Assembly (NCBI RefSeq): GCF_055900595.2
Contig: NZ_CM148325.1
DNA: 64,000 bases
Strand: one strand, 5' to 3'
Made by a program: the position numbers and the translations under genes. The notes beneath the pieces are model-generated. The model saw only the letters and a program-made list of their open reading frames with translations. It searched no databases and was not told the origin of the DNA. Positions 33,135 through 56,403 of this stretch are shown here, in pieces. Position 1 is the first letter of the stretch. Each line of letters starts with the position of its first letter.

Positions 33135-33638
33135 TTATTGATAGTGTTTTATGTTCAGATAATGCCCGATGACTTTGTCATGCAGCTCCACCGATTTTGA
33201 GAACGACAGCGACTTCCGTCCCAGCCGTGCCAGGTGCTGCCTCAGATTCAGGTTATGCCGCTCAATTCGCTGCGTATATCGCTTGCTGATTACGTGCAGC
33301 TTTCCCTTCAGGCGGGATTCATACAGCGGCCAGCCATCCGTCATCCATATCACCACGTCAAAGGGTGACAGCAGGCTCATAAGACGCCCCAGCGTCGCCA
33401 TAGTGCGTTCACCGAATACGTGCGCAACAACCGTCTTCCGGAGCCTGTCATACGCGTAAAACAGCCAGCGCTGGCGCGATTTAGCCCCGACATAGCCCCA
33501 CTGTTCGTCCATTTCCGCGCAGACGATGACGTCACTGCCCGGCTGTATGCGCGAGGTTACCGACTGCGGCCTGAGTTTTTTAAGTGACGTAAAATCGTGT
33601 TGAGGCCAACGCCCATAATGCGGGCAGTTGCCCGGCAT
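33135..33638 (-). CDS. insB: IS1 transposase InsB (expressed as InsAB' by frameshift)
   Basis: 167 aa, [64 protein letters not shown]... Confidence 0.95.
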
Positions 33639-33832
33639 CCAACGCCATTCATGGCCATATCAATGATTTTCTGGTGCGTACCGGGTTGAGAAGCGGTGTA
33701 AGTGAACTGCAGTTGCCATGTTTTACGGCAGTGAGAGCAGAGATAGCGCTGATGTCCGGCGGTGCTTTTGCCGTTACGCACCACCCCGTCAGTAGCTGAA
33801 CAGGAGGGACAGCTGATAGAAACAGAAGCCAC
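33557..33832 (-). CDS. insA: IS1 protein InsA
   Basis: 91 aa, [43 protein letters not shown]... (zinc finger + HTH). Confidence 0.95.
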
Positions 33833-33949
33833 TGGAGCACCTCAAAAACACCATCATACACTAAATCAGTAAGTTGGCAGCATCACCAAAACCTGCAAAA
33901 ACTCTTAGATCTTTTACAGAGCGAAGATGGATTCAGTAGCAATAAGAAG

Positions 33950-36949
33950 TTGATTGGCAAATTTCGTTTGTTACCGAAAAAATTAACCACAAAGAAAAAA
34001 CATGAATCCCAAAATGGACACGTCCACTTTTCTAATCCTAAACGAGCAGCCGACCATTTATTTAATAATTTTGATCTGATACCAGAGTTTCGTATTATTG
34101 GTGACTTCCCGGTTGATAGTCACATTATCTCTGCACTATGGATTAACATGGTCGGGCATAAATTTGATGCCAGCTTAGATAACTGTTGCTATGGCGCGCG
34201 GCTAAAGCGTATTCGTAATGATGAATTATTTAGCAATGAGCAGGATAATCCATTCCATATCAGTGCAGTGGGTTCTTTTAGCCCCTACTTCCAGCCCTAC
34301 CAAAAATGGCGTGGTGATGGCTTAAAAGCTATACGTGACGAGTTGGAAAAAGATCGTGACATTATCGCCGCCTCACTGGATTTAAAAAGTTACTATCATT
34401 TTATTGATCCACTGGCTATAACCTCTGATGATCTCTATAACACACTAAACATAAAACTGACTGAGGATGAAAAAGCGTTTACTGCACAGTTAGCAGTATT
34501 CTTAAAGCACTGGTCTGACGGCGCAGCGGCATTTGGAAAGAAAATAGCGTACAAAACACCTGTTATTAATGGTGGTCTGGTCATTGGATTAACAGCCAGT
34601 CGGATCATTTCAAATATATTGCTACACCATTGGGATAAATTAGTCATTGAAAAACTATCACCAATTCACTACGGTCGTTATGTCGATGATATGTTCCTTG
34701 TAATACGCGATACAGGGAAAATTACTAATAATCACGAATTTATGTTATTGCTGCAAGATAGGCTTGGCAATGATTGCGTTTATTTGAAAAACGAGCAAAA
34801 ACAAATATGGCAAATACAGCAGGGCGAGCATTTCCAGGGTAAGACCACCATCCAGTTACAATCCGATAAGCAAAAACTTTTCGTGCTTCAAGGGAGGGCT
34901 GGAATAGACCTGCTCGACAGTATCGAAAAGGAGATCTACGAGCTTTCTAGTGAACACCGCTTGATGCCTTCACCGGATCAACTGGAACACTCAACCGCAG
35001 CTAAAGTCCTTTCCGCTGCCGGTAGTGTAGGTGAAAATGCCGATACTCTGCGCCGTGCAGATGGATTAACCATTCGTCGTTTGGGCTGGTCACTGCAATT
35101 ACGCTACGTTGAAACACTGGCACGAGATCTGCCTCCAAGTGAATGGAAAGAACAGCGGGAAGAGTTTTATCAGTTTGCCTACAACCATATTCTTAGGGCT
35201 GATAATCTATTTGCACATTTTAGTTATCTGCCAAGGCTGCTTGGCTTTGCTATCAGTATGAATGAATGGCAGCACGCGGAAACAATTGTACTTAAAGCTT
35301 ACGAATCCATCAACCTGTTGGCATCGGTGATTACTTCAGGTAAGGAAGTGAATATAAATGGTTGCAAAACTCGAGCAGTAAATGATCTTTGGCGCTGTAT
35401 AAAAGGCACATTAAGCTGGCTATTTGTTGATGCAGCGACACGATATTACAGTCCTGACAGATTATTTCTTGATAAACGTTCAAAGAAAGAAGAGTGCCTT
35501 GCGGATACATTTTTTAATCATATTTCACAAAGTCTGACGAATCTAAAGGATTTACTGGATCTTCGCTTTGATTCAGCAGATTTTTATTTAAAAGCGCCAT
35601 TGGTAGCTCGAGCTGATTTAGCAAAGGAACCTTATAAACAGATCGTAAAGAGTCAGTCGGCAGAAAAACTTGTTAATCAGCGTGATAGTAAAAAAGAAGT
35701 TAAAATACTGAAATTAATGAGCGACTCATCGCTTATTGATATTGACGTTATTAAGCTATTTTTGAAATCAACCAAGAATACCCGACTGGAAAAAGTGGCT
35801 AAAGGAAATCGTAAGAACGAAAGTTACCTACCTTACATTTTCCCTACACGTCCTTTAACACCCGCTGAAATATCAGAACTGGCCCCCGAATGTGTTGGAT
35901 TACCCTCCACATCCGACAAAAAACCAGATGAGAGACCGTCCACCATTTGGGCAAAATATACTCAAGCATTACGCGGAGTATGGATCAAACCGACGTTGCT
36001 AGCATCGGAGCAGGACTCAGATGAAGCGACAAAAAAAGCTCGGCCTAAGAAATTCATTCATATTGGCACAGACAGGAAACATAAAGTTGTCGTTGCGCTA
36101 ACCAGCATTAAAACAGAGGAGGACGACTGGGCTAAAATGGCCTGCAATAAATCTAACTTGTCCCGTTCAAGGTACCAGCGGATTTCTGAACTGGTTAATG
36201 CAACATTGAAACTATCTCCTAAACCTGATTATGTTTTATTCCCTGAGCTTTCAATCCCGTTACGCTGGGTTAACAGTATTGCTGATCGTTTGAGTTCGGC
36301 GGGTATCAGTCTAATTGCGGGAACAGAATACCGCCACTTAGACGATAATCAACTGAAGAGTGAGGCCGTACTTGTCCTTTCAGATAACAGACTCGGCTAT
36401 CCAGCGAGTGTCAAAATATGGCAACCCAAGCTGGAACCCGCCGTAGGTGAAGATGAGGCATTATTTTCAACTTATGGTAAGTCTTGGGACTCGACACTTA
36501 ATGTTAAACAACGTAAGCCGGTATATATTCATCATGGCGTCAATTTTGGCGTTATGATTTGCTCTGAACTCCAGAATAGTAAAGCGAGGATCCGTTTTCA
36601 GGGCGCACTCGATGCATTAATGGTATTGAGCTGGAATAAAGATCTAGATACGTTTGCATCGTTGATTGAATCAGCAGCGCTGGATATTCATGCCTATACT
36701 ATTTTAGTGAATAACCGAAAATACGGCGATAGTCGCGTACGTTCCCCGGCAAAAGAACCCTTTATGCGTGATATTGCTCGTGTGAAGGGCGGTGATAATG
36801 ACTTTGTGGTCGCTGCAACGCTGGATATCGACTCGTTAAGGGCATTTCAGAGCAGGGCAAAACGCTGGCCTAAAGGCGGCGATAAATTCAAACCGTTACC
36901 TGAAGGATTCCAGTTGGCAAAGAACCGCAAAAAGCTACCGCCAAAATAA
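33950..36949 (+). CDS. Reverse transcriptase with C-terminal nitrilase (C-N hydrolase) domain; defence-associated RT, DRT type 1 / UG1-like; possibly 5'-truncated by IS1
   Basis: RT motifs in order: A (ASLDLKSYYHFID), B (GGLVIGLTASRIISNILL), C (YGRYVDDMFLV). C-terminus has a nitrilase-type Glu/Cys pattern (YVLFPELSIP ... GVMICSELQ). ORF begins at TTG 63 bp after IS1 and the frame is open into IS1. Confidence 0.8.
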   Translation: MIGKFRLLPKKLTTKKKHESQNGHVHFSNPKRAADHLFNNFDLIPEFRIIGDFPVDSHIISALWINMVGHKFDASLDNCCYGARLKRIRNDELFSNEQDNPFHISAVGSFSPYFQPYQKWRGDGLKAIRDELEKDRDIIAASLDLKSYYHFIDPLAITSDDLYNTLNIKLTEDEKAFTAQLAVFLKHWSDGAAAFGKKIAYKTPVINGGLVIGLTASRIISNILLHHWDKLVIEKLSPIHYGRYVDDMFLVIRDTGKITNNHEFMLLLQDRLGNDCVYLKNEQKQIWQIQQGEHFQGKTTIQLQSDKQKLFVLQGRAGIDLLDSIEKEIYELSSEHRLMPSPDQLEHSTAAKVLSAAGSVGENADTLRRADGLTIRRLGWSLQLRYVETLARDLPPSEWKEQREEFYQFAYNHILRADNLFAHFSYLPRLLGFAISMNEWQHAETIVLKAYESINLLASVITSGKEVNINGCKTRAVNDLWRCIKGTLSWLFVDAATRYYSPDRLFLDKRSKKEECLADTFFNHISQSLTNLKDLLDLRFDSADFYLKAPLVARADLAKEPYKQIVKSQSAEKLVNQRDSKKEVKILKLMSDSSLIDIDVIKLFLKSTKNTRLEKVAKGNRKNESYLPYIFPTRPLTPAEISELAPECVGLPSTSDKKPDERPSTIWAKYTQALRGVWIKPTLLASEQDSDEATKKARPKKFIHIGTDRKHKVVVALTSIKTEEDDWAKMACNKSNLSRSRYQRISELVNATLKLSPKPDYVLFPELSIPLRWVNSIADRLSSAGISLIAGTEYRHLDDNQLKSEAVLVLSDNRLGYPASVKIWQPKLEPAVGEDEALFSTYGKSWDSTLNVKQRKPVYIHHGVNFGVMICSELQNSKARIRFQGALDALMVLSWNKDLDTFASLIESAALDIHAYTILVNNRKYGDSRVRSPAKEPFMRDIARVKGGDNDFVVAATLDIDSLRAFQSRAKRWPKGGDKFKPLPEGFQLAKNRKKLPPK

Positions 36950-37111
36950 GAAACTGATTTTCGCTATTAATAATCAGGGTATTTTTGCGTGAGATGTCGG
37001 TAAACATGATGTAGCTCTTGCCACTCATGACCAATCGCAGTATCTTTCTCCCGCGTCTGCAAAATCAGGCGTCGGGATTAGCCTCCTGAAGAAATCTTAT
37101 CGGCGACACAT

Positions 37112-37132
37112 GACGCGCCAGCGTCTTTTTTT
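37112..37132 (+). terminator. Putative intrinsic terminator downstream of the RT-nitrilase gene
   Basis: GACGC-GCCA-GCGTC hairpin followed by TTTTTTT. Confidence 0.45.
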
Positions 37133-37295
37133 GTGTTGTTCGCACGGTTACACCTCAATGGTGGGCCGGGCGGGGGCGTCGCAAGACGCGCCAGTGTCCG
37201 ATAAGGCTGGTAAGGCTAACCCTGCCCGGTTCCACCACCCGCGAGATTAGCCTCTCCGGTGGTGGCTTGAACACCCACTTATCGGAGGTTGCCCT

Positions 37296-37766
37296 ATGGC
37301 TACAATCCTCACCACTGACAGCGATTTACTCGATCTATTGACCGTCCCCTTCAATGCCACCACGGATTTCACTGTCCTTGCTGACTACTGCGCCCGCTTT
37401 GCCGAAACCCTGATTGAAACCGACGATCCCGCGCTACGACTGGCGCTCTGCGGGCGGCTTCACGCGGCTCTTGCGCTATTGCAACCCACACTACACGACC
37501 CCATCCCACCGCATCTTACCGAAAGCCTGACCGTGGATACCCTTCCCGCCACACCAGAGCACTTTATTTCCGAACCTGATTCCTTGTGCGAATACTGCCT
37601 CGCACTACTCCAGCTTCTGCTGGAACGTCCGGCGGAACCAAAAATGGAGCAAACCCTGACCGGGCTGCTGTGTGAGCTGGTCTGGTATTTCACGGAAGGA
37701 CTCAAAGCCCCGCGCTGGATGCGTACCGCCGACGGCGTAAAATTTATCAGCGAGGTGGCCGCATGA
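37296..37766 (+). CDS. Hypothetical protein (156 aa), Leu/Ala-rich, acidic
   Basis: ORF preceded by GGAGG SD; no recognisable motif; stop overlaps the start of the ner-like remnant. Confidence 0.45.
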   Translation: MATILTTDSDLLDLLTVPFNATTDFTVLADYCARFAETLIETDDPALRLALCGRLHAALALLQPTLHDPIPPHLTESLTVDTLPATPEHFISEPDSLCEYCLALLQLLLERPAEPKMEQTLTGLLCELVWYFTEGLKAPRWMRTADGVKFISEVAA

Positions 37767-38103
37767 TGCAACAGGACTGGCATTCCGCCGACATTATTGC
37801 GGTGCTGAAAAAGCGGGGAACGCCTCTGGCGGCACAGAGAAAAACTCATTGCGGAAGCGCTGTAAATATCGCCAGAAATCATCTGGTCCTCAAGGTACTT
37901 TGATAGCAAAGGCAAGCTGGCTGGTTCAGTCCGGAGTCTCTCTTCTTGCACTTAAAGAGATGGGAGGATGGGAAACTCTCAAAAAGGTTCAGAGATACGC
38001 TCACCTTTCAGCCGGGCATCTCACCGAGCACGCAAGCAAAATCGGCACGATCATAAGTCGCAATGGCACAAATACGGCACAGGAGGAAGCGTGGTGTATT
38101 TAA
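37763..38103 (+). pseudogene. Frameshifted Ner/Nlp-like HTH gene fused to the 3' end of a tyrosine-integrase gene (deletion scar)
   Basis: Frame A reads MMQQDWHSADIIAVLKKRGTPLAAQ (Ner/Nlp-like N-terminus); frame B reads ...GPQGTLIAKA (Ner-like C-part) joined in frame to SWLVQSGVSLLALKEMGGWETLKKVQRYAHLSAGHLTEHA, a typical integrase C-terminus with the catalytic Tyr. Confidence 0.6.
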
Positions 38104-38121
38104 ATATGGGGTAACTACTTG

Positions 38122-38144
38122 ATTTAAATGGTGCGATAATAGGA
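38122..38144. repeat. Partial copy of the thrW 3' end: distal att repeat of the thrW-integrated element
   Basis: TTTAAATGGTGCGATAATAGGA matches TTTGAATGGTGCCGATAATAGGA at 58841-58863 (tRNA 3' end plus 6 bp) with 1 mismatch and 1 indel. Confidence 0.75.
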
Positions 38145-38205
38145 ACAATACACATAGGCGATAAGCTTTGTTTTTGTTGCCTTTTTTATTGTTCATTTTT
38201 TATAG

Positions 38206-38227
38206 ATACCCCCAAAAGTACCCCCAT
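38206..38227. repeat. Putative integrase arm-type site (ATACCCCCAAAAGTACCCCCAT), left end of element
   Basis: 22-mer differs by 1 nt from the copy at 58713-58734 near the int start; each holds two TACCCCCA half-sites. Confidence 0.45.
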
Positions 38228-38345
38228 ATCTTTTTCCGCCCCTGAAATTTGGTTGTTATTCATACAGCATATCAGGCGGTAACGCTCTCCCTTTAACCCA
38301 CTTATTGTATGATAGTGCTATCCCACAATAAGGAATCAGCCAGCC

Positions 38346-38705
38346 ATGAGAATGACCAGCCGTAAAAAAGAGATACTCAGTTATTTTGAGCCGGATAACC
38401 TAGAATGGGTGACAGGTGAGATTGGTGCGCCGCCGTTCGATGTGTCGGGCGTGGCCTACCTGCTTCATGGCATGGTGTCGTTCGATAAGCGCCACCAGCT
38501 CGAATCAACCCGGCGCACACTGGAAAGCATGGTTGCTGGTGGACTGCTTGAGCGGGTGACAGTGTATGAATCGCGTCAGGTACGGCGCGGCGGTGAGACT
38601 AACGCAACGGTCGTGCGCTACGGTTTACCCGGTCACTGCGCTGTTATGCGCGATACTGGCGGCGCTGATAACGCAATATCAGGCGAATACATGCGGGTCA
38701 GTTAA
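38346..38705 (+). CDS. Hypothetical protein (119 aa)
   Basis: ORF only; no recognisable motif. Confidence 0.35.
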   Translation: MRMTSRKKEILSYFEPDNLEWVTGEIGAPPFDVSGVAYLLHGMVSFDKRHQLESTRRTLESMVAGGLLERVTVYESRQVRRGGETNATVVRYGLPGHCAVMRDTGGADNAISGEYMRVS

Positions 38706-39240
38706 GAGCCTGCAATCTGTCGTTAATGTTGTTCAGGTCGTAAACCCGGCGTTCAATATCCAGCATCAGGAAATCGTGGATCTCGGCCTGTTCAGGATTA
38801 TCAGACTCTCTGGCCTGTAAGAGCAATTCATTGTAACCATGCAAACCACCCGAATTTTCCGCCGGGGTAGTGCCCTTCCCGCGCAAACAGCTAACAGGCT
38901 GGATACTGGTATCATGTGTTTGCTTCTCCAGCACAACAAGGCAATCCCACCAGTCGCCAAAGTCATACGTGTAAACCAGCTTGTCACCCTCATTCTGGAG
39001 CGCCGCCCATAGTGGCGTGATTGCCGCGTTACCCATGCTTTCATCCTCACCCCATACGCGATACTCGCTACCTGGATCACCTTTACGCCCTTTCTCGAAC
39101 ATATACAGGTGTTCGTCATTCCAGCCAAAAGCTAACTGGATCACGGCATGAAGTTTACTAAAGGGGATTTGCTCTGGAACCAGCACACGCCGCCATATTG
39201 GTGGTTTGCTGTCTCGGATGGTTATCTTTATCTGGTACAT
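38698..39240 (-). CDS. pRiA4b ORF-3-like family protein
   Basis: N-terminus MYQIKITIRDSKPPIWRRVLVPEQIPFSKLHAVIQLAFGWNDEHLYMF is the recalled hallmark of this family. Confidence 0.6.
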   Translation of the reverse strand: MYQIKITIRDSKPPIWRRVLVPEQIPFSKLHAVIQLAFGWNDEHLYMFEKGRKGDPGSEYRVWGEDESMGNAAITPLWAALQNEGDKLVYTYDFGDWWDCLVVLEKQTHDTSIQPVSCLRGKGTTPAENSGGLHGYNELLLQARESDNPEQAEIHDFLMLDIERRVYDLNNINDRLQALN

Positions 39241-39283
39241 GCGTCGTGAACCAATAGTGTACGTTTAGGTGGGTATTTTTCTG

Positions 39284-39718
39284 CTACTGACCAGGATAGA
39301 GCTGATGTGCCGGGTCAAGCCAGACAATATGGAATACATTACCGATGAAAAATCCATGTATGCGACCATATTCATTGCGCGATATGGCAAATTGATAAGG
39401 TGTATAACTCTGAAACTGTTCATTCAAATGCTGAAATCCCTTAGGTTCAGATGTAGTTTGCCAATCAATCGGATGTGACTTCAACGAACCACCGCGATCG
39501 GTGGTGAACTCTCGTTCAGTCATAGTGGAAAGGTCTTTGAGGCGGTCTAACACCTTGCAAAAATAAACAGGATTCTGAGCGCTGAAAGTAAATTTCTCAT
39601 GCGCCGCATCGATATACCGAAAAGAAAAGTTGATGGTCGTTATGCCTGAACCTGTTCCCCCAGGCACTATTTTTGTTTGCGAGGGTGCAATCTTCGACGC
39701 CCTGATTCTTTTCGCCAT
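39284..39718 (-). CDS. Hypothetical protein (144 aa) coupled to the Panacea-domain gene; candidate toxin/effector partner
   Basis: ATG 2 nt after the upstream stop with no SD of its own (translational coupling); no recognisable motif. Confidence 0.5.
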   Translation of the reverse strand: MAKRIRASKIAPSQTKIVPGGTGSGITTINFSFRYIDAAHEKFTFSAQNPVYFCKVLDRLKDLSTMTEREFTTDRGGSLKSHPIDWQTTSEPKGFQHLNEQFQSYTPYQFAISRNEYGRIHGFFIGNVFHIVWLDPAHQLYPGQ

Positions 39719-39720
39719 AT

Positions 39721-40176
39721 TTAGGAAGCCATCGAACGATAAAACTCAGCCGTTACACTTTTATCAATAACATTCTTGCACGGCGCATCTGATGGAACCC
39801 CTTCACGGGCCTCCAGCCACGGCTTTTCTTGGTGCGTCATCTGCTCCAGCTCATAAGCTGTATAACCGCCAAATACCTCATAGATTTCCTTTAGATGCTT
39901 TGACACATTCGCAGGTAACTCAGGGCAGGCAATCTCTTCGTCTATTGAGCGCCATTTGTAATCTGCAAATCTGGTATACAAATCTCTGGCTACAGGGCCA
40001 TGTACCCATGCTTCAAACTTGTCAGCAACCAGTTCTTCGCCATCATTCAGCGCCATGAACCAAGCATCAGCATAGAACACCATTTTTTGCAGTTTCAGCG
40101 GCGTCATAACATCCCCATGCTCTTGAGCAAAGCAAAGCAGGTAATCCGCTACGCTGTTAAGGGTTGTAACTGCCAT
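39721..40176 (-). CDS. Panacea-domain (DUF4065, SocA/GepA-like) protein; putative antitoxin
   Basis: AGGAG SD before ATG at 40176 (MAVTTLNSVADYLL...); LKLQKMVFYADAWFMALNDGEELV...FEAWVHGPV is characteristic of the domain. Longer ORF 39721-40407 is probably upstream read-through. Confidence 0.6.
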   Translation of the reverse strand: MAVTTLNSVADYLLCFAQEHGDVMTPLKLQKMVFYADAWFMALNDGEELVADKFEAWVHGPVARDLYTRFADYKWRSIDEEIACPELPANVSKHLKEIYEVFGGYTAYELEQMTHQEKPWLEAREGVPSDAPCKNVIDKSVTAEFYRSMAS

Positions 40177-40497
40177 TATCCAATCTCCTGCCGTATGTTT
40201 TCGTCTATAACTGTCCACTACCGTTAATAATCGCATATAACCACGGGTATTGCCCATCGTAAAATGCCATTTAAAGATTCTGCGTGATGGCTCACCATCC
40301 ACCGCGCAAGATACCCGGTGCGTTTGGCTGATAATCCGCAATTTGGTTGAAACCGTCCTGGAAACCTCAAGTTTGGAAACCAGCGACTTGCATCGTAGCT
40401 TTGCCATTCGGCGGTCATAGTTACTGCTATATCCCTTTATTGGCGAGACCTGCGAGAGGTTTTGTTGTTCGAATATATAAAGGTGAATAAAGGTAAT

Positions 40498-40683
40498 CTA
40501 CCTGCGCGGCGCAGGCTTCTTCCACTGGTAGGCGGGTGATCGCATCATTTCGCGAAATTTGTCACGCCGGGCTATATTGGCATTAACTGAGCGTTCTATC
40601 TCCCGTTGATCTGCCGGGGTTAGCTGGTGGCCTTCGTGCTCCAGTTTGGCGGTGGTCAATAAAGCTATTTCGCGTGGTGTCAT
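40498..40683 (-). CDS. Hypothetical small protein (61 aa)
   Basis: ORF only; charged, helical. Confidence 0.25.
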   Translation of the reverse strand: MTPREIALLTTAKLEHEGHQLTPADQREIERSVNANIARRDKFREMMRSPAYQWKKPAPRR

Positions 40684-40910
40684 ACGTCATACCCTCTGGA
40701 AGGATGAAACACGCCCGGATTAAATTTCATTTTTCGCGGGTATAAAAAAACGATGGGGCGGGCAGTCCCGGATAGTCAGGGCTGTAGAGATTTGACTACC
40801 CCCTCCCCACTGGATTCAGGTTACTGCTATTCCGTTAAGCGCTGCTTACGGGGATAGCTGCGTTGTGATTTTGACCATTCAGGTCGCCGCTATTTCCTCA
40901 CCGATTGGGT

Positions 40911-40942
40911 GCTACGCGCGCGCGTACTTGTCCCGAAATACC
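40911..40942. repeat. Copy 1 of a GC-palindrome motif (GCTACGCGCGCGCGTACTTGTCCCGAAAT)
   Basis: One of three same-orientation copies (with 42303 and 42589); core TACGCGCGCGTA is a perfect palindrome. Confidence 0.5.
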
Positions 40943-40980
40943 AGAAACCGCCAGCCAGAGGATGATTTCCCTCTGGTGGT

Positions 40981-41262
40981 CTACCTTTGCCTCTTGCCGC
41001 CATTTAACCGGAAGGCGTTACCGTTCGGTTGCGCTATCCCCATGCGGTGTTGCGTTTCGGTAACAGCTTTATGCAGGTCGCCAAATTCCTCAACCTTCAC
41101 GGGCGGGCGCTTCACGTTCTCCAGACACGTTTCACGGCGGCGCTTTATCCATTCCCGATCATCGTCCTCGCTGCATAACAGCATGACTTCCATCCATCGT
41201 GCGGCAGCTCTCCGGTATAGCCCTTTTGACACCAGCTCTTCAGCTTTCCTGTCCCTTATCAT
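40981..41262 (-). CDS. PerC-family transcriptional activator-like protein
   Basis: 93 aa; MIRDRKAEELVSKGLYRRAAARWMEVMLL matches the conserved PerC/Pch N-terminal signature (recalled). Confidence 0.55.
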   Translation of the reverse strand: MIRDRKAEELVSKGLYRRAAARWMEVMLLCSEDDDREWIKRRRETCLENVKRPPVKVEEFGDLHKAVTETQHRMGIAQPNGNAFRLNGGKRQR

Positions 41263-41295
41263 TTCTGCCTCTCAGATTATATAGATAAGCAAAAA

Positions 41296-41420
41296 GGTGT
41301 TGGTTCAGTTGGTTCAGTTGGTTCAATTTGTAAAGATCGTTGTTTTTATTATGTTTTTTCTAAAATATTGAACCAACATCAACTCATTTTGAACCAACAC
41401 AGCCCAGCTCTGAACCAACA
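41296..41420. repeat. Iteron array I: 3 direct + 3 inverted GTTGGTTCA repeats around an AT-rich spacer (origin-like)
   Basis: GGTGTTGGTTCAGTTGGTTCAGTTGGTTCAATTTGTAAAG ... TTGAACCAAC, TTGAACCAACAC, TGAACCAACA; the first 40 nt are the exact reverse complement of 49541-49580. Confidence 0.7.
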
Positions 41421-41521
41421 ACACAGCGATAGCTTTGTGATTGGCCCGTTATTTTCTGGCTGATATTTGAGCGTATAACAGTGTTATACAGTGATATACT
41501 GTATGGATATTACTCACTGAT

Positions 41522-41977
41522 ATGGTCTTTGCAATGAGCAAATCTAATCTGGTCGCGTTCCGCATCCCATCTGAATTGCAGGATGAGTTTAATCGGTCTG
41601 TTCTCGCTTCTGGAGGGGATAAAACCTCCTGGCTTGTTGATGCGATTCGCATGAAGCTGGGACAGCCGGAAAAGTCTATTGATTCACGAATGTTTGGGCT
41701 GGTGGAGCGCATGGAAAAAGCTGCTGCGTCGCTTATTGCCGGAAAGCCGAACATCCCACCAAAGCCATATAACGAAACGGCAGTTATAAAGATCATTGCC
41801 GATACCATCCGACAGGGATTTGATAATGGGCGTGTGATAGCTGAACGGATCAATGAAGCAGGCTATCAAACAAAAGCTGGTAAAGCGTGGGATAAAGATA
41901 TTTACAGCGCGTGGAAGCGTCAGGGAAGCAATGCTGAAAAGTTAAAAGCGGTGATTGATTGTAAGGTCAGCGTATAA
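41522..41977 (+). CDS. Hypothetical protein (151 aa)
   Basis: ORF just downstream of iteron array I; no recognisable motif. Confidence 0.4.
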   Translation: MVFAMSKSNLVAFRIPSELQDEFNRSVLASGGDKTSWLVDAIRMKLGQPEKSIDSRMFGLVERMEKAAASLIAGKPNIPPKPYNETAVIKIIADTIRQGFDNGRVIAERINEAGYQTKAGKAWDKDIYSAWKRQGSNAEKLKAVIDCKVSV

Positions 41978-42056
41978 ACATGAGTGCCCATTGGAAAGCT
42001 GCTTGGGCCAATACCTTTATACACCAGCAGGTGGTGACGATAGGTGAGGATCAGGA

Positions 42057-42278
42057 ATGAAAGGCAGAACGCCACACATTGAACATCAAGCCAACCACTT
42101 CTCGGATGTTCGCAATGAGATGATTGCCATTCGCGGTGATATGCACGGCTTGGAGCGTCGAATTATTGATAAGATTGATGAAAATAGAGATAAGGCCAGT
42201 GAAAATCAAAAGTGGATCATCGGCCTGTTGATTTTATCAATTCTTATCCCGCTACTTATCGCATTGGTCACAAAATGA
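42057..42278 (+). CDS. Small membrane-anchored protein (73 aa), XhlA/holin-like architecture
   Basis: Charged N-terminal helical segment then C-terminal TM helix (WIIGLLILSILIPLLIALV). Confidence 0.4.
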   Translation: MKGRTPHIEHQANHFSDVRNEMIAIRGDMHGLERRIIDKIDENRDKASENQKWIIGLLILSILIPLLIALVTK

Positions 42279-42302
42279 ATATCCAATGTGTATGCTGTCG
42301 AT

Positions 42303-42332
42303 GCTACGCGCGCGTACTTGTCGCAAAATATC
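42303..42332. repeat. Copy 2 of the GC-palindrome motif (GCTACGCGCGCGTACTTGTCGCAAAAT)
   Basis: Same orientation as copy 1; one CG unit shorter. Confidence 0.5.
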
Positions 42333-42588
42333 AGGCAAAGGCCAGATTCAGAACGTCGTGATAACCACCAGCACAACATGAGATGTCATGTAACGCGATT
42401 TATCACGTCAGATACATGTGATTGGTGTACCCGCATAAAACATTGTCATAGCGCGTCCTGTGCGCATATACGCCGATAATCAACACATCACCACCACTCT
42501 GTCTCATGTAGAGAACACTTTTATGGTATCCCCCGCCATCGTGTGCGTACTGGTCGGACGCAGTTGCAAAAAATTTTGCAACTGATAC

Positions 42589-42619
42589 CCCTCGCGCGCG
42601 TACTTGTCTCGAAATTGGT
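42589..42619. repeat. Copy 3 of the GC-palindrome motif (CTCGCGCGCGTACTTGTCTCGAAAT), preceded by a TTGCAAAAAATTTTGCAA palindrome
   Basis: Third same-orientation copy; separate 18-bp inverted repeat at 42564-42581. Confidence 0.5.
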
Positions 42620-42822
42620 GTTTTGCTGTGGCAGTGATATCAGAAAAATCTTCCTGTTTCACATAAAGCGGATATGCGCGTACTGTAACGGCCCCATCAA
42701 CTGGGAGCGGATTTGAGCCCCGAATGTGTAGGCAATGTCACTTAACGTTTGTCGCATACCTTCCAGAAAAAGCGATTCATGAATAATAGGGGCATGAATG
42801 CCCGGCGTACCGGGCTTATTAG

Positions 42823-43521
42823 TTAATTTGGTGCTTTAGGGTCAACATTAAAAGTTATATCACCTTCTGTATTTTTCCCGGCATAGCTAGCGGCTATTCT
42901 CGCCAACCCTTTGTAATCAGCAATTCCATCAGACTGTTGCGAGACGACTGAGCTACCAACTTTCCATAACATATTAATCTGCCGATTATTGAGATAAGCC
43001 TTGGCATCAAACGACTGGAGTATCACCCCTGCGCCGTAGAACGTGTCCGTCACAGTTGTGTTATACGCGCCAGTAATTCCATAAGTAGGCGTATAAACTG
43101 TTGTTGCCGTTCCAGTGGTATTAGCTGTACCGTAGCCACCACCATAACTATTGAACGTGGTGTTCGAGTTTCCGTACGTTGTTGCTGAGCTCACACCAGT
43201 TTGCCCGTATATTGGGATGGTTACATTACGAGTATTTGAAATGGCCCCGCTTCTCAAAAAGTTCAAGAGAATTACCTGGTCAGCCAATTTTTCATCTTTA
43301 ACTTGTGTATATCCTTGGCTTGATAAACTGGCGGCTACTACCGTAGCTATTTGAGTGTATTCAATCTGTTTGGTGTTCCAAAGTTCTTGGCTTGCGGGGA
43401 TGATCAAGAACTTCTTACCGACAGATTGCCCGGAAGATAAAGCATTGACCGTTACTAACGGTTTTTGTACGCATCCAGCCAATAATGACAGGGATAATAT
43501 TAAAAGAAGATTTTTAATCAT
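42823..43521 (-). CDS. Lipoprotein, Gly/Thr/Asn/Tyr-rich
   Basis: Signal peptide with lipobox (MIKNLLLILSLSLLAGC); low-complexity central region. Confidence 0.6.
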   Translation of the reverse strand: MIKNLLLILSLSLLAGCVQKPLVTVNALSSGQSVGKKFLIIPASQELWNTKQIEYTQIATVVAASLSSQGYTQVKDEKLADQVILLNFLRSGAISNTRNVTIPIYGQTGVSSATTYGNSNTTFNSYGGGYGTANTTGTATTVYTPTYGITGAYNTTVTDTFYGAGVILQSFDAKAYLNNRQINMLWKVGSSVVSQQSDGIADYKGLARIAASYAGKNTEGDITFNVDPKAPN

Positions 43522-43671
43522 GATAATCTCACCTAAGAATTGCGTGGTTATAAATTATCATCACTGTAAGCGAATGTAAGCCACAGACTCGTAATGTGAT
43601 ATGGAATTTTGATAGTTGGCTCAATATCAGTATGCCGTCCTTGGCTATTATGGTTTTGTTAGTTAGAGCGT

Positions 43672-46398
43672 CTATTCCCATTCGCTAACATCTTTCATGC
43701 CACTGAGGGTAGCTACAATCCCGGCCCTTGTCAGTTTCACGAATTCTTCAGCCCCAACGGCATCACGAATTGCTTTCATGGCAATTTTATTGGCCGAAAA
43801 TCGTTTCTCTGCTGCGGCGATCGCTGCTGGTGATGCCCCTGCGCGCACTGCTTTTGTAGCTTCCTGAACGGCTTTCTCTATCGCATATCGACCACTTCTT
43901 GTCGCCCCAATCTTAGCCACAGCATTTCTTAGCGCGCCACCAGCAACCAAACCACTAATCGAACCAATTACACCACCGCCAAAGCCTCCAGCGATCGCAC
44001 CTGACTGTTGAACACCGTTCATAATCACGCCGACGATCTTTGGAAGGCCTGAATCGAGCGTTTTGAGAGCCTCAGTTGTTCTTCCCGTGCGCTCTACGTA
44101 TCGCTGCGGTCTGGTACTGGCTTTAGCGAGTACACCGAACTCTTTCATCATTCTACCGAGATCTGGCGCATGACGACTGATGGCGTTTACATTCTGCTGG
44201 GTCATGAGCTTGGCAAAATACTGGATACCTGACTCTTCACCGATTCCTCCCTTCTCTCCCTGCGCCACAGCATGCTGAAGAATAGATGCTATTGCAGGTT
44301 GGCGTTCTGCTTCCGGCAGCGCGGAGATAAGACGGTGAAAAGCTCCCGTTCCAGTGTTTGCGGATGCCTTAAGCGTATCGGCACCTTTTCTTACCATAGC
44401 GTCTGATGCGAGATCTCGACCAAAAACAGATTCGGCATTTTGTTTGGCGATAATGTAACTTTTAGAGAGATCGTTAGCTTTCTGCCATTCTGTGAGGAAG
44501 TTTCCTTTTTCAGCCATGATGCGCATGTCATCAGTGATAGCTCTGCGCATTTCTCCGGCAATCCGGGCGGCATTGGCCTTACCTGCCCGGGTGTTTGCTT
44601 GTTCAGCATCAGCAAACTTAGCACGCCATGCCTTCATCCCGTCGAAGGTTATGCCGCCACCTTGGTTGTTGGCAGCCTGAAACTGTTTCATCTCCGGGCT
44701 GAGTGGAACATTGGCTGCTTTTTCTGCTTGGACGACAGCCATTCCATTACTCATTTTCATCCTTTCGCGTGGCATCGTGCTTCGCAGTTCTGCCCATGCC
44801 ATATTCTCTGCTGTTTTCATATCACTGAGGCTCGCGATGATGCGCTCTTTAATTGCTGCGCTTTTTTCTGATGCGCTTCCAGACTCAGCACCGAAATCAG
44901 ACAACTGCTTATTCAACTTTGAGGATATTTCATTGAAGGCCGTAAGGTGAGCATCCTGAACATTCCCAGGAGTTGATGCCAGAACACCTTCTGCTTGGGC
45001 AATTCCACGACTACCTGAGCGCATTCCAGGCGTCAGGGTGTTGATATTAATACCAGTGATTTTCGCCGCCTTAGCGACATCATCTCTGACGTTTGATGCC
45101 TGCGATGCGATATGCTCTCGGCCTACGGCAGAACGCGCTGCTTTCGATACATCATTGGCGGTTTCCAGAGTATTTGCTGCCCCTAACACATGGCCTGATT
45201 GATTTGTATTACTCCGCAATACATCTCGCATTACGTCACTGGCTGTCTGTCCGCTCTTTATTAAAGCGCGTGCTCCTAGCGATCCTGCTAGGCCAATACC
45301 TGTCTCTTTTGCTAGGTCTTCTGGGCTGATCTGCCCGTTCTTTTGGGCGTTCACCAATGTACCTGGCAGGTTTTCTGCCAACATACTAGCCACCTTTGTG
45401 GCCGCACGTTCAGCACGTGGAGCGTTGGCAACTGAAGAAGCTGCGGTAGCTGCCTTTCCTGCACCTAATCCTGTAATAAGGTAAGGTGCTAGCTGCTCAC
45501 CAGCCTGCGCGTATGGATCTGTAGGTTGGTCTACTGGGCGAAAGACAGGTGATATGGGCGTGTATGTGCCATCACCCACACCAAGCTTCTGAGCTGCCCA
45601 TGCTCCGGCTGATTGCGCCGCATTGACTACCCCCACGCCTGCGTCCATTACATCAAACGGTATATTAGCAATCCCTCTGGCCATCTGCTCTGGCGCAGCT
45701 TTCAGTCCTGGCGAAAGATATTCCATCTCAGGATTAAGGTTAGACTTGGCTACTTGCTGCTGCGGTTCCCCGGCATTTTCATCGGCGAGAAACTGAGCTC
45801 TTTTCTGCTCCCATGAACTGGCTGTTGGTAGTCCTGCTTCTATGTTCTTAAATTGCTGACGTTTTGCTTCCCATGCAGAAATATCTCCCACCTGAGAGAT
45901 TTCTTTATCAAGCTCTGAGTAGTCAGGCTGCTGAAGATTGCGATGTTGACTGGTTTGTGCAAACTGCAAGATTTCACTGTCATCAGGGATTATTCCGGCA
46001 TCTGCAAATTTACTTACGTAATTAGCCGTTTCATCTGGCAGTGTAGATTTACCGTTTCTGACGGCATTAATACGAGCATAGCCAGAATTATACCCAGCCA
46101 ATGCCATACCTATATCACCAAATCGCTTCATTCCTTTATTGAGATGGTTTGCTGCGATATCCATTTGCTTTTCAAATGGCAGTGAGCGCGGATCTGTTCC
46201 ACGATAACCAGCATCACTCATTACTGAGGGCATCAGTTGAGCAAATCCTCTAGCTCCTTTCGGTGACTCGGCACTTCCGTTACCACTAGATTCATTGCCA
46301 ACTAATGTTTCCATCGTCCCTGATGGGAAACCATATTTTTCATCGAGATGACGGGAATAGGCTTTCTGTTTTTCTGTCAGTTGTGCCATCATTGCCAT
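43672..46398 (-). CDS. Large protein with N-terminal lytic transglycosylase (SLT) domain; podovirus gp16-like internal virion/ejection protein
   Basis: 908 aa; SLT motifs (GARGFAQLMPSV ... ALAGYNSGYARI) then long helical region and C-terminal hydrophobic segment. Confidence 0.65.
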   Translation of the reverse strand: MAMMAQLTEKQKAYSRHLDEKYGFPSGTMETLVGNESSGNGSAESPKGARGFAQLMPSVMSDAGYRGTDPRSLPFEKQMDIAANHLNKGMKRFGDIGMALAGYNSGYARINAVRNGKSTLPDETANYVSKFADAGIIPDDSEILQFAQTSQHRNLQQPDYSELDKEISQVGDISAWEAKRQQFKNIEAGLPTASSWEQKRAQFLADENAGEPQQQVAKSNLNPEMEYLSPGLKAAPEQMARGIANIPFDVMDAGVGVVNAAQSAGAWAAQKLGVGDGTYTPISPVFRPVDQPTDPYAQAGEQLAPYLITGLGAGKAATAASSVANAPRAERAATKVASMLAENLPGTLVNAQKNGQISPEDLAKETGIGLAGSLGARALIKSGQTASDVMRDVLRSNTNQSGHVLGAANTLETANDVSKAARSAVGREHIASQASNVRDDVAKAAKITGININTLTPGMRSGSRGIAQAEGVLASTPGNVQDAHLTAFNEISSKLNKQLSDFGAESGSASEKSAAIKERIIASLSDMKTAENMAWAELRSTMPRERMKMSNGMAVVQAEKAANVPLSPEMKQFQAANNQGGGITFDGMKAWRAKFADAEQANTRAGKANAARIAGEMRRAITDDMRIMAEKGNFLTEWQKANDLSKSYIIAKQNAESVFGRDLASDAMVRKGADTLKASANTGTGAFHRLISALPEAERQPAIASILQHAVAQGEKGGIGEESGIQYFAKLMTQQNVNAISRHAPDLGRMMKEFGVLAKASTRPQRYVERTGRTTEALKTLDSGLPKIVGVIMNGVQQSGAIAGGFGGGVIGSISGLVAGGALRNAVAKIGATRSGRYAIEKAVQEATKAVRAGASPAAIAAAEKRFSANKIAMKAIRDAVGAEEFVKLTRAGIVATLSGMKDVSEWE

Positions 46399-47708
46399 CC
46401 CTTAAGTTTTGCCTGATAGTAACTTTCCGGCAGATAGCCATGTGCGGTCACATAATCCTTAACCAGTGAAGGATCCTGCAACAGCATTTTGGTATCAGTT
46501 TCTTCGTCCTTAGATTTGGTTACAGGAATACCGAGCCCGGCAATCTGTCGTTTCTGCATTCGAATAATTACGTCCTGCGCTTTATTCAACTCTCGCAAAA
46601 ATGCCTCATTGCTGGTTGCTGACTTAATGCCATTTTGAGATTGCATAAGGGCAGCCCTTTCCCCTTCGGTTGGGTTAGAGCCAAAAGTCCCTTTGAGGCT
46701 AGGCAGAATAACCTTTAGGTTGTATTCATCAGCTTTGGCGCGTAGGCTTCGTGTGTCTTCTGCTACATCAGGAAGGAATCCAAACCCCAGCGTCAGGGGG
46801 TTATAGTTCTGCGAGCGGGTAACGGCCGAAGGATGTTTCCCTACAATTCCCGCCAGTTCATGACCCACTTCAAGCGCAGAGTTCAAGGAGTCGATGTTAC
46901 CTGCAACAGTATTAATTTTATCGTTCATCTTCTCCACTTTCGCCTGCTGTATCTTGCTCAGTTCAGCATTGAGCTTGTCTCTCTCGATGTCATTTTGAGC
47001 ACGTCCAAGTCGTGCTTTCAGAACCATTTCTCTCGTGCGTAGTTGGTTATCGGATAGGACTTTGAACTGCTCCATATCGAGACGTCGATTACCCTGTTCC
47101 GCATTAACCTGAGCATTATATGCGGATGTATCTGCGTTCTGCTGTGCAATGCTCTGCCCTTGCTGCTTCTCTTGAACACTAAAGTAACTATTTGGATCAG
47201 CATGGAGGTGGATGAGGTCAGTGATTCTGTTGAATTCCTGTGGGTCATTCTGCCAAGACTGATAAACCTCTTCAGCAGGAAGACCAAATCGCTGTAATAC
47301 TGGATTTGCCTGCTGAATGGCCTTCTGCATGGTCAGTGGATCTCCAGTTTGTGACGCAAGACGCAGATTCATGGCAGCGTCAGCGGTCTGTCGATTTTGC
47401 TCAGCATCAATGAATCCCATCTGTTTTTGAGAATCAGCCATAAACTGGGGATACTGGGCCATTAACTTCTGCACGCCAACACGATCATTATTAGCTACCG
47501 CACTACCCAACCGTGCCTGATATTCTTTTAACTGCTGGGAAATTTGCGCCTGCTGATTAATCTCAGCAACGCCTCTTAGCCCCTGTAGCGCCATTAAACC
47601 TACGTTTGGCTGCTGCTGATACTGCACAGGCTGAGGAACGGAAGAACGAGGAGCATTATCATTTTGCGGTGCCATGCTAGGCAGCCCGCCAAGTTGCCAT
47701 GTCGCCAT
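46389..47708 (-). CDS. Gln-rich coiled-coil protein (439 aa); gp15-like by size and position
   Basis: Overlaps neighbours by 1-10 bp; no enzymatic motif. Confidence 0.5.
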   Translation of the reverse strand: MATWQLGGLPSMAPQNDNAPRSSVPQPVQYQQQPNVGLMALQGLRGVAEINQQAQISQQLKEYQARLGSAVANNDRVGVQKLMAQYPQFMADSQKQMGFIDAEQNRQTADAAMNLRLASQTGDPLTMQKAIQQANPVLQRFGLPAEEVYQSWQNDPQEFNRITDLIHLHADPNSYFSVQEKQQGQSIAQQNADTSAYNAQVNAEQGNRRLDMEQFKVLSDNQLRTREMVLKARLGRAQNDIERDKLNAELSKIQQAKVEKMNDKINTVAGNIDSLNSALEVGHELAGIVGKHPSAVTRSQNYNPLTLGFGFLPDVAEDTRSLRAKADEYNLKVILPSLKGTFGSNPTEGERAALMQSQNGIKSATSNEAFLRELNKAQDVIIRMQKRQIAGLGIPVTKSKDEETDTKMLLQDPSLVKDYVTAHGYLPESYYQAKLKGWQ

Positions 47709-48385
47709 TAGAATCCAAGCCCCCCAACAAGACCAATAAGCCCACCACCAATAGCGCCGGCCGCAGTTCCTATTCCAGGAACAACGGAACCAAGTTGCGC
47801 ACCCGCTAAAGCGCCTGATGCTGCCCCACCAATACCACGCGCAAGACTGGATGGCTGCTGCGCCTGACCTGCACGAATAGCGCCAAGCCCCTGCAAGAGT
47901 TGTCCGGTATTATTGGCGTAGTTTTGCCCTGCCGTTGCCTGCCCTGATGCCGCATTCATCCCGACATTTAGCAGGTTTCCATAATTTTGCATTTGCCCAC
48001 TGAGCCAATTGTTATAAAGCATGGGCGCAATGGAAGATAACTGGTTACTGGTAGCTGTTGAGCCAAGCCCCCCGGTAGCTTCTGCTGAGACAAGGTTCTG
48101 ATAACGGGCCTGATCTGCCTGTGTTTTATATAAACCAGAACCAAAGAAATCATTCGCGGCTTTATTCTGCCCTTCCAGAGTCATCAGTCCTTGTAGTTGT
48201 TGTAAAGCAGGCAATCCGACTTCTGCATACGGCTTGAGATTATTCATCACCGTATTCCACTGCTCGCGCTGCAAATCAATTGCCTGCTGCTGGGCCTTCG
48301 CCTGAGCTTTAGAGGCACCACCATCACCGCCTTTTTCGTATACGGCACGATTGAGATGTTTATGAGCTATGTGGGTAATTAACAT
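47708..48385 (-). CDS. Protein with C-terminal glycine-zipper membrane segment (225 aa); gp14-like
   Basis: C-terminus GIGGAASGALAGAQLGSVVPGIGTAAGAIGGGLIGLVGGLGF. Confidence 0.5.
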   Translation of the reverse strand: MLITHIAHKHLNRAVYEKGGDGGASKAQAKAQQQAIDLQREQWNTVMNNLKPYAEVGLPALQQLQGLMTLEGQNKAANDFFGSGLYKTQADQARYQNLVSAEATGGLGSTATSNQLSSIAPMLYNNWLSGQMQNYGNLLNVGMNAASGQATAGQNYANNTGQLLQGLGAIRAGQAQQPSSLARGIGGAASGALAGAQLGSVVPGIGTAAGAIGGGLIGLVGGLGF

Positions 48386-48840
48386 TCGCTGAATTCCTTA
48401 TATTGTTGCCGAGTTAACTGATAAAGCGTTACGCCGACGGGTTTACCACATCTGATATAAGCATCATCAAGGTGACCAACACGGGTAGCGCCAAGCAAAC
48501 GGATAATTGCCCGTCCGTATTTGGTGGTGTCAGGAACCATGGTAATGCTGTTAAGGAATGGTGAGTTTTCGAGAAGCCATTTGCAGAATAATCGATGCCC
48601 TTGCAGTGCATATTCACCACGGAATCCGGGGTCGTACACCGCATGGCATTCAACAACGCTATGCCAGAAGTTACGCACTTCATGAACGCCAGCCAGCACT
48701 AATCCTTCGTAGATGCCGAGATATACCGCATCAGGCTTGATGTAGTACGTGTGCCCCGGCTCAACAATATTTTCGGTATTGCCTGGCTCGTTAAGAAAGG
48801 CCTGTAATCGCACAGGGTTATCAATAAATTTTAGTTCCAT
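48379..48840 (-). CDS. Hypothetical protein (153 aa); first gene of the four-gene module (gp13-like position)
   Basis: ORF with coupled start; no recognisable motif. Confidence 0.5.
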   Translation of the reverse strand: MELKFIDNPVRLQAFLNEPGNTENIVEPGHTYYIKPDAVYLGIYEGLVLAGVHEVRNFWHSVVECHAVYDPGFRGEYALQGHRLFCKWLLENSPFLNSITMVPDTTKYGRAIIRLLGATRVGHLDDAYIRCGKPVGVTLYQLTRQQYKEFSEC

Positions 48841-48850
48841 GCGATGCCAT

Positions 48851-49018
48851 CCATTTTCACATACAGCCTGCCAGCGCCTTATCTATTAACCCTCGTGCAA
48901 TTTCATGCAGAGTTGGCGCTACTCCAATTCCTGATTTTTTACGCTGCTCTTCCTGAATTTTCTTTATCGCTTCCATTTGCTTCTCACTTATCAATACCGG
49001 CTTTACTGAAATAGCCAT
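48851..49018 (-). CDS. Small protein (55 aa), possible ribbon-helix-helix DNA-binding protein
   Basis: AGGGGG SD then ATG; MAISVKPVLISEKQMEAIKKIQEEQRKKSGIGVAPTLHEIARGLIDKALAGCM. Not in the ORF track because under 60 aa. Confidence 0.35.
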
Positions 49019-49465
49019 AACGCCCCCTTAGAACTGTATAAAACAACAGTTATTATAGTTTCACAAATCGCAATATTCATCATCGTAATTGCAAAATATG
49101 AAACAAATAGCACAAAAAAATGCCACCGCTCAGTAGCTGGTGGCATCGTTCTGTGTGTCAGGTTTTGACAGGTTTTTTATGGACTCTAAAAACTATATTT
49201 ATGGTGTCGCATTACTCTTCACGGCAGGCGCTTTTCAGTTCTGCCCTTGCTTCTGGCTCCATTGGTAATTTGATTCGCGATCAGCTATGCGGATGGTTTG
49301 CTGAACAGGCATAACAACTTCTCAGAGGCTGTTTTTTGAACTACGAAAATTTCGTAGTGCTCACTTTCAAAAACGTCACGCCCTTGTACACAGGATTTTA
49401 CGAAAGTCTCGTAAAACACTCTCTGATGCCAGCCAGGTGTTGTGCGCATCAATTCAGTCACATTG

Positions 49466-49580
49466 TGTTGGTTCAAAATACCGTGTTGTTGGTTCAGTGT
49501 TGGTTCAATAAAAAGAATAAAATCCTTATAAAACAATACTCTTTACAAATTGAACCAACTGAACCAACTGAACCAACACC
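49466..49580. repeat. Iteron array II: 3 direct + 3 inverted GTTGGTTCA repeats around an AT-rich spacer, next to the primase gene
   Basis: Same architecture as array I; 49541-49580 is the exact reverse complement of 41296-41335. Confidence 0.7.
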
Positions 49581-49602
49581 TTTTCTACGCACATGAAGAA
49601 GC

Positions 49603-52362: not shown

Positions 52363-52717
52363 CGTACCCCACGTGGTCTATAGCGTTTGCGATATGGCTA
52401 ACCAGCATCTGCCACTTGGTTATTCCGTAATCAGTCAGCATGCCATCATTGTTTAGCCACATATCAAATTCAGCGGTTGTCGCAAGTTTCCACTTATCGC
52501 CGTGGGCAGTCCTCATTGCTGGGTACATGAATGCGCAAATCAGATCACAAACATCTGACGGCTTCAGAGATGTAGTAATGATGCGTCCCTCTGGCGTCTG
52601 AATTGCCATTTTCTCTTCACCAGTAGAATGAAGGTTATGAATCCACACAGCACCAGCAATCTTTGCCACCTGCTCTCCGATTGCGGAGCTAAGCGCCATT
52701 TCTGCATTTTCACGCAT
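52346..52717 (-). CDS. Hypothetical protein (123 aa)
   Basis: ORF with overlapping stop/start coupling in a run of small minus-strand genes. Confidence 0.4.
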   Translation of the reverse strand: MRENAEMALSSAIGEQVAKIAGAVWIHNLHSTGEEKMAIQTPEGRIITTSLKPSDVCDLICAFMYPAMRTAHGDKWKLATTAEFDMWLNNDGMLTDYGITKWQMLVSHIANAIDHVGYGDAKH

Positions 52718-53051
52718 GAGAACCTCCCGCTACAGTTGCGCCCATGTCATTAACCATGCTTTGCCATATCTCACGCCCGACGTCAGTCAATCCGTCCTTA
52801 GTGACGCAACGATCAAGAAGCTCGATCCCCACGGTTTCCCACTGCGGGTAGAACACTTTCATGGCTGCCAGTGTGTAGCTATCGATCAGGCTGCGAACGC
52901 CTTTTACTCCATTGACGATTTCCACACGGACGGCCTCGCCGTCCGCATCAACCATGAAATAGTCCCCGCCGCTGGTGGAGGTAATGTGGTTATACAGTGC
53001 CGACGCATACTTATTTGCCAGCGCATTCAGTCGGAAATTTTTAGTAATCAT
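52710..53051 (-). CDS. Hypothetical protein (113 aa)
   Basis: ORF, coupled to neighbours. Confidence 0.4.
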   Translation of the reverse strand: MITKNFRLNALANKYASALYNHITSTSGGDYFMVDADGEAVRVEIVNGVKGVRSLIDSYTLAAMKVFYPQWETVGIELLDRCVTKDGLTDVGREIWQSMVNDMGATVAGGSHA

Positions 53052-53061
53052 GGTTCCATCC

Positions 53062-56391: not shown

Positions 56392-56403
56392 TTTCAGTCT
56401 CCG

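Follow-up and report, generated by a model that had tools for sequence, protein, structure and literature searches.

The open reading frame at positions 40981-41262 (minus strand) of the 64-kb stretch of DNA analysed here, referred to as the window, is best explained as a PerC-family gene that is orthologous to EcCIMP1_025 and carried by an EcCIMP1-like phage-inducible chromosomal island (PICI) at thrW, and it represents the E11V allele deposited as WP_251120496.1. Its product would most likely alter transcription by binding regulators or nucleoid proteins, not by reading the DNA sequence itself, and the gene is probably expressed from a weak promoter of its own. Taken jointly, the assignment of the gene and the proposals on its partners and its expression have, in our estimate, a probability of about 0.75. 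It should be noted that earlier publications cover the gene, its carrier island and the effect of a nearly identical protein on a virulence promoter, that the gene is also annotated already, and that what the window adds to this work is small: a duplicated origin array beside perC and the rare E11V allele.

Family membership of the perC product

According to the list of open reading frames, the interval is filled exactly by an intact reading frame encoding 93 amino acids, and a Shine-Dalgarno motif, GAGG, can be read 7 nt ahead of the ATG. The earlier note had proposed a PerC homologue at this position and had named a search with the family profile as the way to check it. That search returned a significant match over the full length: residues 1-85 of the protein align with positions 1-85 of the 90 in the Pfam model PF06069 (PerC), with an E-value of 3.3e-29 and a score of 101.4 bits. 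The protein also matches PHROG 994 over its full length (E 1.4e-36), and in a BLASTP comparison it is 37% identical over 75 amino acids to the PerC protein of the enteropathogenic E. coli (EPEC) plasmid pMAR2 (E 5e-20). In an alignment of 23 family sequences that includes the founding member, EPEC PerC, all 13 invariant columns are kept (D4, K6, A7, L10, G14, R17, R18, A19, A20, R22, C46, G75 and F84). In RefSeq the orthologue carries the product name 'PerC family transcriptional regulator', and, as a small helical protein of 93 residues encoded on a PICI between att repeats, the product has the general traits of the family. By sequence comparison, then, it is a genuine member of the PerC family, on evidence far beyond what chance would give, and the homology proposed earlier holds.

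The carrier island

The window corresponds to the E. coli chromosome around thrW, with proA, proB, phoE and crl on the right side. The island occupies 20,729 bp (38135-58863), from a tyrosine integrase gene at the tRNA-Thr gene to the distal att core. Using the core sequence given in PMC11773190, TCCTATTATC, we found exactly two copies in the window where 0.07 would be expected. The distal one is an exact match at 38135-38144 (minus strand), and the other, at 58854-58863, lies inside thrW, the tRNA-Thr (CGT) gene that is the target of integration (58847-58922, minus strand).

Reading inwards from thrW, the minus strand carries the integrase gene (57467-58681); alpA (56835-57038), just downstream of it, whose protein is identical to that of the HTH gene at the same position in E. 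coli MP1; and the gene for a 919-aa primase/replication initiator with zinc ribbon, TOPRIM and DUF927 regions (49603-52362). Beyond these, and between the two iteron arrays described below, are four P22-like genes for DNA-ejection or virion-associated proteins (43672-48840, minus strand), which encode a DUF2824 protein, a 225-aa protein, an ejection protein and a 908-aa lytic transglycosylase/injection protein; related loci match the Pfam families Inj_translocase and Phage_P22_gp16. A variable module on the plus strand (41534-42278), divergent from perC, holds a 147-aa gene (41534-41977) and a 73-aa gene (42057-42278). Downstream of perC, and again on the minus strand, lie a 61-aa gene conserved with the island (phrog_7271, 40498-40683) and an insert (39284-40176) composed of a Panacea/SocA-like gene of the antitoxin type (39721-40176) and a 144-aa MAG6450-family gene (39284-39718).

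The sequence features by which Gram-negative PICIs are recognised are found here, namely an integrase at the att site, direct repeats around an element of roughly the usual 10-20 kb, alpA downstream of int, a primase and an origin 3' of the initiator gene. The closest described element is EcCIMP1 of E. coli MP1, a PICI for which excision, dependence on AlpA and transduction by a P22-like helper phage, Kapi1, have been demonstrated (Pick, Stadel & Raivio, ISME J 2025; PMC11773190), and whose gene at the alpA position, EcCIMP1_003, is its master activator (PMC11773190). Both islands are of the same type and share the thrW site, the att core, the 61-aa flanking gene and the iteron array. The window is 98.6% identical to the MP1 locus over 17.9 kb (42298-60183), 96% over the perC segment (40496-41399) and 95.8% over the distal end (38124-39242). 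They differ upstream of perC, where window positions 41400-42297, with the 147-aa and 73-aa genes, take the place of an MP1 segment that carries alpA_1, and downstream of perC, where positions 39243-40495, with the Panacea-type two-gene insert, are unique to the window. We conclude that the element is a variant of EcCIMP1, that is, a PICI at thrW, which is known here from its sequence.

The expectation that perC lies on a mobile element was therefore correct, given the att-bounded 20,729-bp island with its integrase, alpA and primase, whereas this carrier is neither a plasmid nor a prophage, the types that the earlier note mentions for PerC/Pch-type proteins in general, but a phage satellite. 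We rejected an identity as plasmid or prophage after a megablast search against phages gave no match and a tblastn search against phages gave three weak ones. DNA matches in the plasmid collection were limited to two, one record of chromosome size and one circular record of 12 kb. A query with the perC region (40400-42300) gave a DNA match in 672 of 5,426 complete genomes. No match was obtained with Rfam over 38000-50000, or with PADLOC for perC and the eight adjoining open reading frames.

A few observations on the island and its relatives can be added. The insert at 39243-40495 resembles a PanA-type toxin-antitoxin or defence pair, although PADLOC gave no match for it. The P22-type DNA-ejection genes match the podovirus helper of the island, and a related Klebsiella island on plasmid pVA126-339 (locus L012, 9037-11748) has, at the corresponding place past the PerC gene, a gene for a tape measure protein; satellites of the EcCIMP1-like family may carry DNA-delivery proteins of their helper type. 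The record NZ_CP148430.1 (L011; 12,152 bp, circular), deposited as an E. coli 'plasmid', looks like an excised circular PICI. We read it in this way because of its gene content, which consists solely of an integrase, perC, array A, a 146-aa gene, a primase, array B and Icd-like, DUF4222 and AntA genes.

A duplicated origin module

The window contains 12 copies of the word GTTGGTTCA, where 0.64 would be expected, and none of 100 shuffled sequences reached this count. The copies are arranged in two arrays. Array A (41299-41419) begins upstream of perC, 36 bp from its start codon, and contains six copies: three in tandem with a spacing of 9 bp, separated by a 43-bp spacer (84% AT) from three inverted copies with a spacing of 21 bp. 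Array B (49467-49577) lies 25 bp past the primase stop codon and has the same architecture, with 3+3 iterons around a 43-bp spacer of 84% AT. The two arrays are inverted duplicates, and the 8,047 bp that separate them hold cargo genes.

The origin of Gram-negative PICIs, in which two sets of iterons flank an AT-rich region immediately 3' of the initiator gene, has been described, with a functional test in the case of EcCICFT073 (Fillol-Salom et al., ISME J 2018; PMC6092414). Array B lies at the canonical origin position, 3' of the initiator gene, and corresponds to the origin expected of a PICI. The window differs from the published organisation in that the module is doubled, inverted and separated by 8,047 bp, and an inverted duplication of the origin is mentioned neither in PMC11773190 nor in PMC6092414. 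The origin-like array that the earlier note had seen beside perC is thus real, being built of 3+3 copies of GTTGGTTCA around an AT-rich spacer and of the same word as the array past the primase. Its reading as the origin stands for the architecture but not for the position: array A is the second, inverted copy, and the canonical place belongs to array B.

We also considered that array A might be an operator for the divergently encoded 147-aa protein, whose N-terminus resembles a ribbon-helix-helix by eye. This possibility was rejected for several reasons: MP1 keeps the full array A without having the 147-aa gene; the GTTGGTTCA word tracks the primase, with an array right after it, and not the 147-aa gene; related species have the array without such a gene; and the protein itself found no support in Pfam, NCBIfam or the PDB. 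Two further observations concern the arrays. The breakpoint with respect to MP1, at 41399, falls inside array A, which suggests that the arrays are recombination points between islands, and PerC alleles occur that have the same N-termini and differing C-termini (for example those of L011 and L017), as would fit recombination at the arrays.

Repression of LEE1 and the possible mode of action

The only experiment on this clade was done with EcCIMP1_025. When overexpressed in Citrobacter rodentium, it repressed a LEE1-lux fusion in a dose-dependent manner, whereas EPEC perC activated the fusion in the same assay (PMC11773190). This result refers to overexpression in a heterologous species and to the E11 allele of EcCIMP1_025.

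The AlphaFold (AF2) model of the window protein, made on the family alignment, predicts four helices (residues 5-13, 16-29, 33-50 and 57-74) with a mean pLDDT of 79.8, which exceeds 90 for residues 1-50 and is lower in the C-terminal part. Neither the sequence search of the PDB nor Foldseek gave a significant match, and no HTH fold was among the matches; the best structural matches were MIT-type helical bundles with E-values of 0.6 or worse. The product would accordingly appear in this model as a small four-helix protein that has no recognisable DNA-binding fold, which tentatively hints that it acts via protein partners instead of by sequence-specific DNA binding. By analogy, candidate partners are the H-NS complex, as for Pch proteins, or AraC-type activators, as for ANR (AraC negative regulator) proteins; these candidates are extrapolated from relatives with at most 37% identity to the window protein.

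A more specific view is that the protein functions as an ANR-type anti-activator, which would bind activators of the AraC/XylS type (and H-NS) and so lower virulence expression. Pick et al. suggest that EcCIMP1_025 may act like an ANR anti-activator (PMC11773190), and the repressing phenotype of EcCIMP1_025 in their assay agrees with it. With the NCBIfam ANR model NF033650, residues 9-50 of the window protein give a match of 24.4 bits (E 1.9e-5), and the MP1 protein scores 31.1 bits. Like the ANR protein Aar of enteroaggregative E. coli (EAEC), the window protein is small and helical, has an N-terminal helical hairpin (residues 9-50) that resembles the ANR model and belongs to a clade that lowers virulence expression. 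However, all scores stay below the curated cut-off of 32 bits, and EPEC PerC, an activator, matches the same region of the model as well (18.2 bits), so that the likeness is family-wide and silent on the direction of regulation. Moreover, the window protein is longer than ANR proteins, with a PerC-type C-terminal half: the fourth helix and the C-terminal tail lie beyond the 54 positions of the ANR model, whereas the PerC match runs from end to end. We think this view unlikely, while granting it some weight; it overlaps with the protein-partner mechanism of the preferred explanation and the two are not exclusive.

The position of perC in related islands

In order to place perC among related islands, we sampled 64 loci with a primase query from contigs representing one genome per species; downstream sequence could be used for 47 of them, all from Enterobacterales. 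Most of these 47 have an array of a repeated word that begins 27-50 bp past the primase gene. The iteron words are specific to lineages and comprise GTTGGTTCA, TGAGACAAC, TCGGTTCA, ACGGGTTA, GTGGGTTA, TGGGATAA and others. Many loci have a second array, which is either adjacent (L008, L023, L037, L044, L052 and L057) or 5-8.5 kb away with variable genes in between (L028, L032, L033, L036, L041, L070 and L074). The last ~100 residues of the primase diverge most where the iteron word differs; however, some loci with the same word are equally divergent, and a clean covariation between primase C-terminus and iteron word is therefore not upheld and remains merely suggestive.

Scored with a profile built from the PerC alignment, a PerC gene is present in 15 of the 47 loci, and in all 15 it lies downstream of the primase gene and has the same orientation. 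It begins ~45 bp past the origin in Erwinia, Pantoea, Lonsdalea and Chimaeribacter, and abuts the array in loci L028, L033, L040, L047, L055 and L064. In Enterobacter and Klebsiella an SSB gene stands between the origin and perC, leaving a gap of 12 bp ahead of perC. In the Salmonella enterica loci L013-L016 (6520-7276) a 162-aa ProQ/FinO-domain gene overlaps the start of perC by 8 nt, so that in these islands an RNA-chaperone-type protein is paired with PerC directly past the origin. PerC is thus a frequent yet dispensable gene in a fixed slot just past the origin. The idea that it is a universal core gene of these islands was discarded, since its presence in only 15 of the 47 primase-sampled loci indicates that it is not required for island function; this agrees with the variable presence of perC reported for EcCIMP1-like islands (PMC11773190).

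These data bear on another explanation, in which perC is mainly a gene of the satellite life cycle that is expressed with the replication module and acts on genes of the island or the helper phage, for instance by relieving H-NS silencing of AT-rich promoters, the effect on LEE being a side effect. The co-oriented slot right past primase and origin, which is kept in Erwinia, Pantoea, Lonsdalea, Enterobacter, Klebsiella, Salmonella and E. coli while the cargo varies, speaks for it, as do the coupling to SSB or to the ProQ/FinO-domain gene and the location of the proximal iteron at the -35 position of perC. The occurrence in 15 of the 47 loci and the variability among EcCIMP1-like islands mentioned above speak against it, and no deletion phenotype has been published (PMC11773190). 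On balance we regard it as rather unlikely, and prefer the reading of perC as the EcCIMP1_025 orthologue whose product would most likely work through regulatory partners.

Expression of perC

In the relatives with the simplest arrangement, where perC begins ~45 bp past the origin, transcription of the AlpA-driven replication operon probably runs on into the gene. In the window, perC is cut off from that operon by the 8-kb cargo and by two convergent genes. A perfect TATAAT hexamer, a putative -10 box, is located 12 nt upstream of the perC ATG (41274-41279, minus strand), and, with a spacer of 17 nt, the -35 element would coincide with the final 6 nt of the proximal iteron, ACCAAC, which bear no -35 consensus. 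Judged from this arrangement, perC of the window probably uses its own weak promoter, composed of TATAAT without a -35 element and with the proximal iteron at the -35 position, and occupancy of that iteron by the initiator could set the level of perC expression. A strict sigma-70 scan around perC found no full promoter, just the isolated TATAAT, and no terminator; the promoter and its coupling to the iteron consequently depend on one hexamer.

It can be speculated further that the inverted origin copy upstream of perC is a regulatory site and not a passive duplication: the initiator (primase) bound to the -35 iteron would couple perC transcription to the replication state of the island, or the two arrays would pair with each other ('handcuff'), bridging the 8 kb of cargo. 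On this view PerC would serve the life cycle of the satellite by remodelling the H-NS-type silencing of genes of the island or the helper phage, with the effects on LEE being collateral. Although we consider this elaboration quite improbable, the duplicated origin beside perC offers a concrete handle on the role of PerC for the satellite in LEE-negative hosts.

The E11V allele

The window protein is identical to EcCIMP1_025 of MP1 at 91 of 93 residues (98%), the substitutions being E11V and T31S. From the common RefSeq allele WP_000617442.1 it differs by E11V, which corresponds to a change from GAG to GTG in codon 11 (window position 41232). Residue 11 is E in 22 of the 23 aligned family members, the window protein having V, and the activity of the window allele may therefore differ from that of the assayed EcCIMP1_025. 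One could suppose that E11V, in the first helix, has left a weakened or inactive protein. Besides the conservation of the position, the lower score with the ANR model (24.4 bits with E11V and T31S, against 31.1 bits without them) would fit this, and so would the rarity of the allele, whose identical sequence (WP_251120496.1) is found on 22 public contigs, compared with at least 1000 contigs for each of the two common perC alleles. Yet the reading frame is unbroken and has a good ribosome-binding site, E11V recurs on those 22 contigs, and a single change of conservative size in a surface helix is frequently without effect. We give little credence to an impaired allele.

PerC relatives and the activator label

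PerC alleles had already been noted on some PICIs of E. coli (PMC6092414). EPEC PerC resembles the window protein in Pfam family, length class and 75 colinear residues at 37% identity. It differs in being encoded on a plasmid (the EAF plasmid pMAR2), in an operon (perABC) with the AraC-type PerA, and in activating LEE1, whereas the nearest assayed relative of the window protein represses it. The Pch proteins of enterohaemorrhagic E. coli (EHEC) O157:H7, that is, the activators PchA, PchB and PchC together with PchD and PchE, are likewise PerC homologues on horizontally acquired elements. Pch of EHEC activates by relieving the silencing of LEE1 by H-NS, StpA and Hha, through alteration of H-NS nucleoprotein complexes (PMC4764244), and PchE (group 3) works against the activators of group 1 (PMC7369912), a behaviour like that of EcCIMP1_025. 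It follows that the PerC family holds members of both signs. With regard to sequence, ~32% identity to the window protein was seen for a Pch-like fragment in a phage record from O157, the named Pch proteins being compared here by their descriptions. Two other PICIs, EcCIEDL933 and EcCICFT073, have PerC-like genes whose products are ~40% identical to EcCIMP1_025 according to published values; PMC11773190, citing Porter 2005, reports that these genes had no effect on LEE1 fusions.

That the window protein is an activator of the PerC/PchABC type, acting on ler (LEE1) or on other H-NS-silenced chromosomal virulence genes, as the earlier note had assumed, is very improbable: it shares the Pfam family and the invariant residues with the activator EPEC PerC, and Pch proteins do activate by lifting H-NS silencing, but its 98%-identical relative EcCIMP1_025 represses LEE1-lux in the sole experiment on the clade, the EDL933 and CFT073 homologues are described in the cited account as having no effect, and PchE shows that family members can oppose activation. 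The term 'activator' is accordingly unsupported for this clade, and an automatic 'virulence activator' flag on genes of the PerC family can be wrong in sign. The carrier, moreover, is a phage satellite that is widespread in commensal and pathogenic E. coli alike. Both points matter for annotation and for risk calls.

The flanking chromosome

Past the distal att site, a second island remnant follows in tandem (33135-38134). It includes a remnant of the C-terminal part of an integrase (~37296-38100) and a fragment of an IS1 transposase (33135-33638). A 999-aa open reading frame at 33950-36949 has a weak match to a reverse transcriptase model (retron St85 RT, E 3.5e-8) and could encode a defence-type reverse transcriptase. 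Further away, in the chromosomal flank and unrelated to the island, positions 20073-24326 hold the gene for a 1,417-aa inverse autotransporter that is intimin/invasin-like and of the EaeH type.
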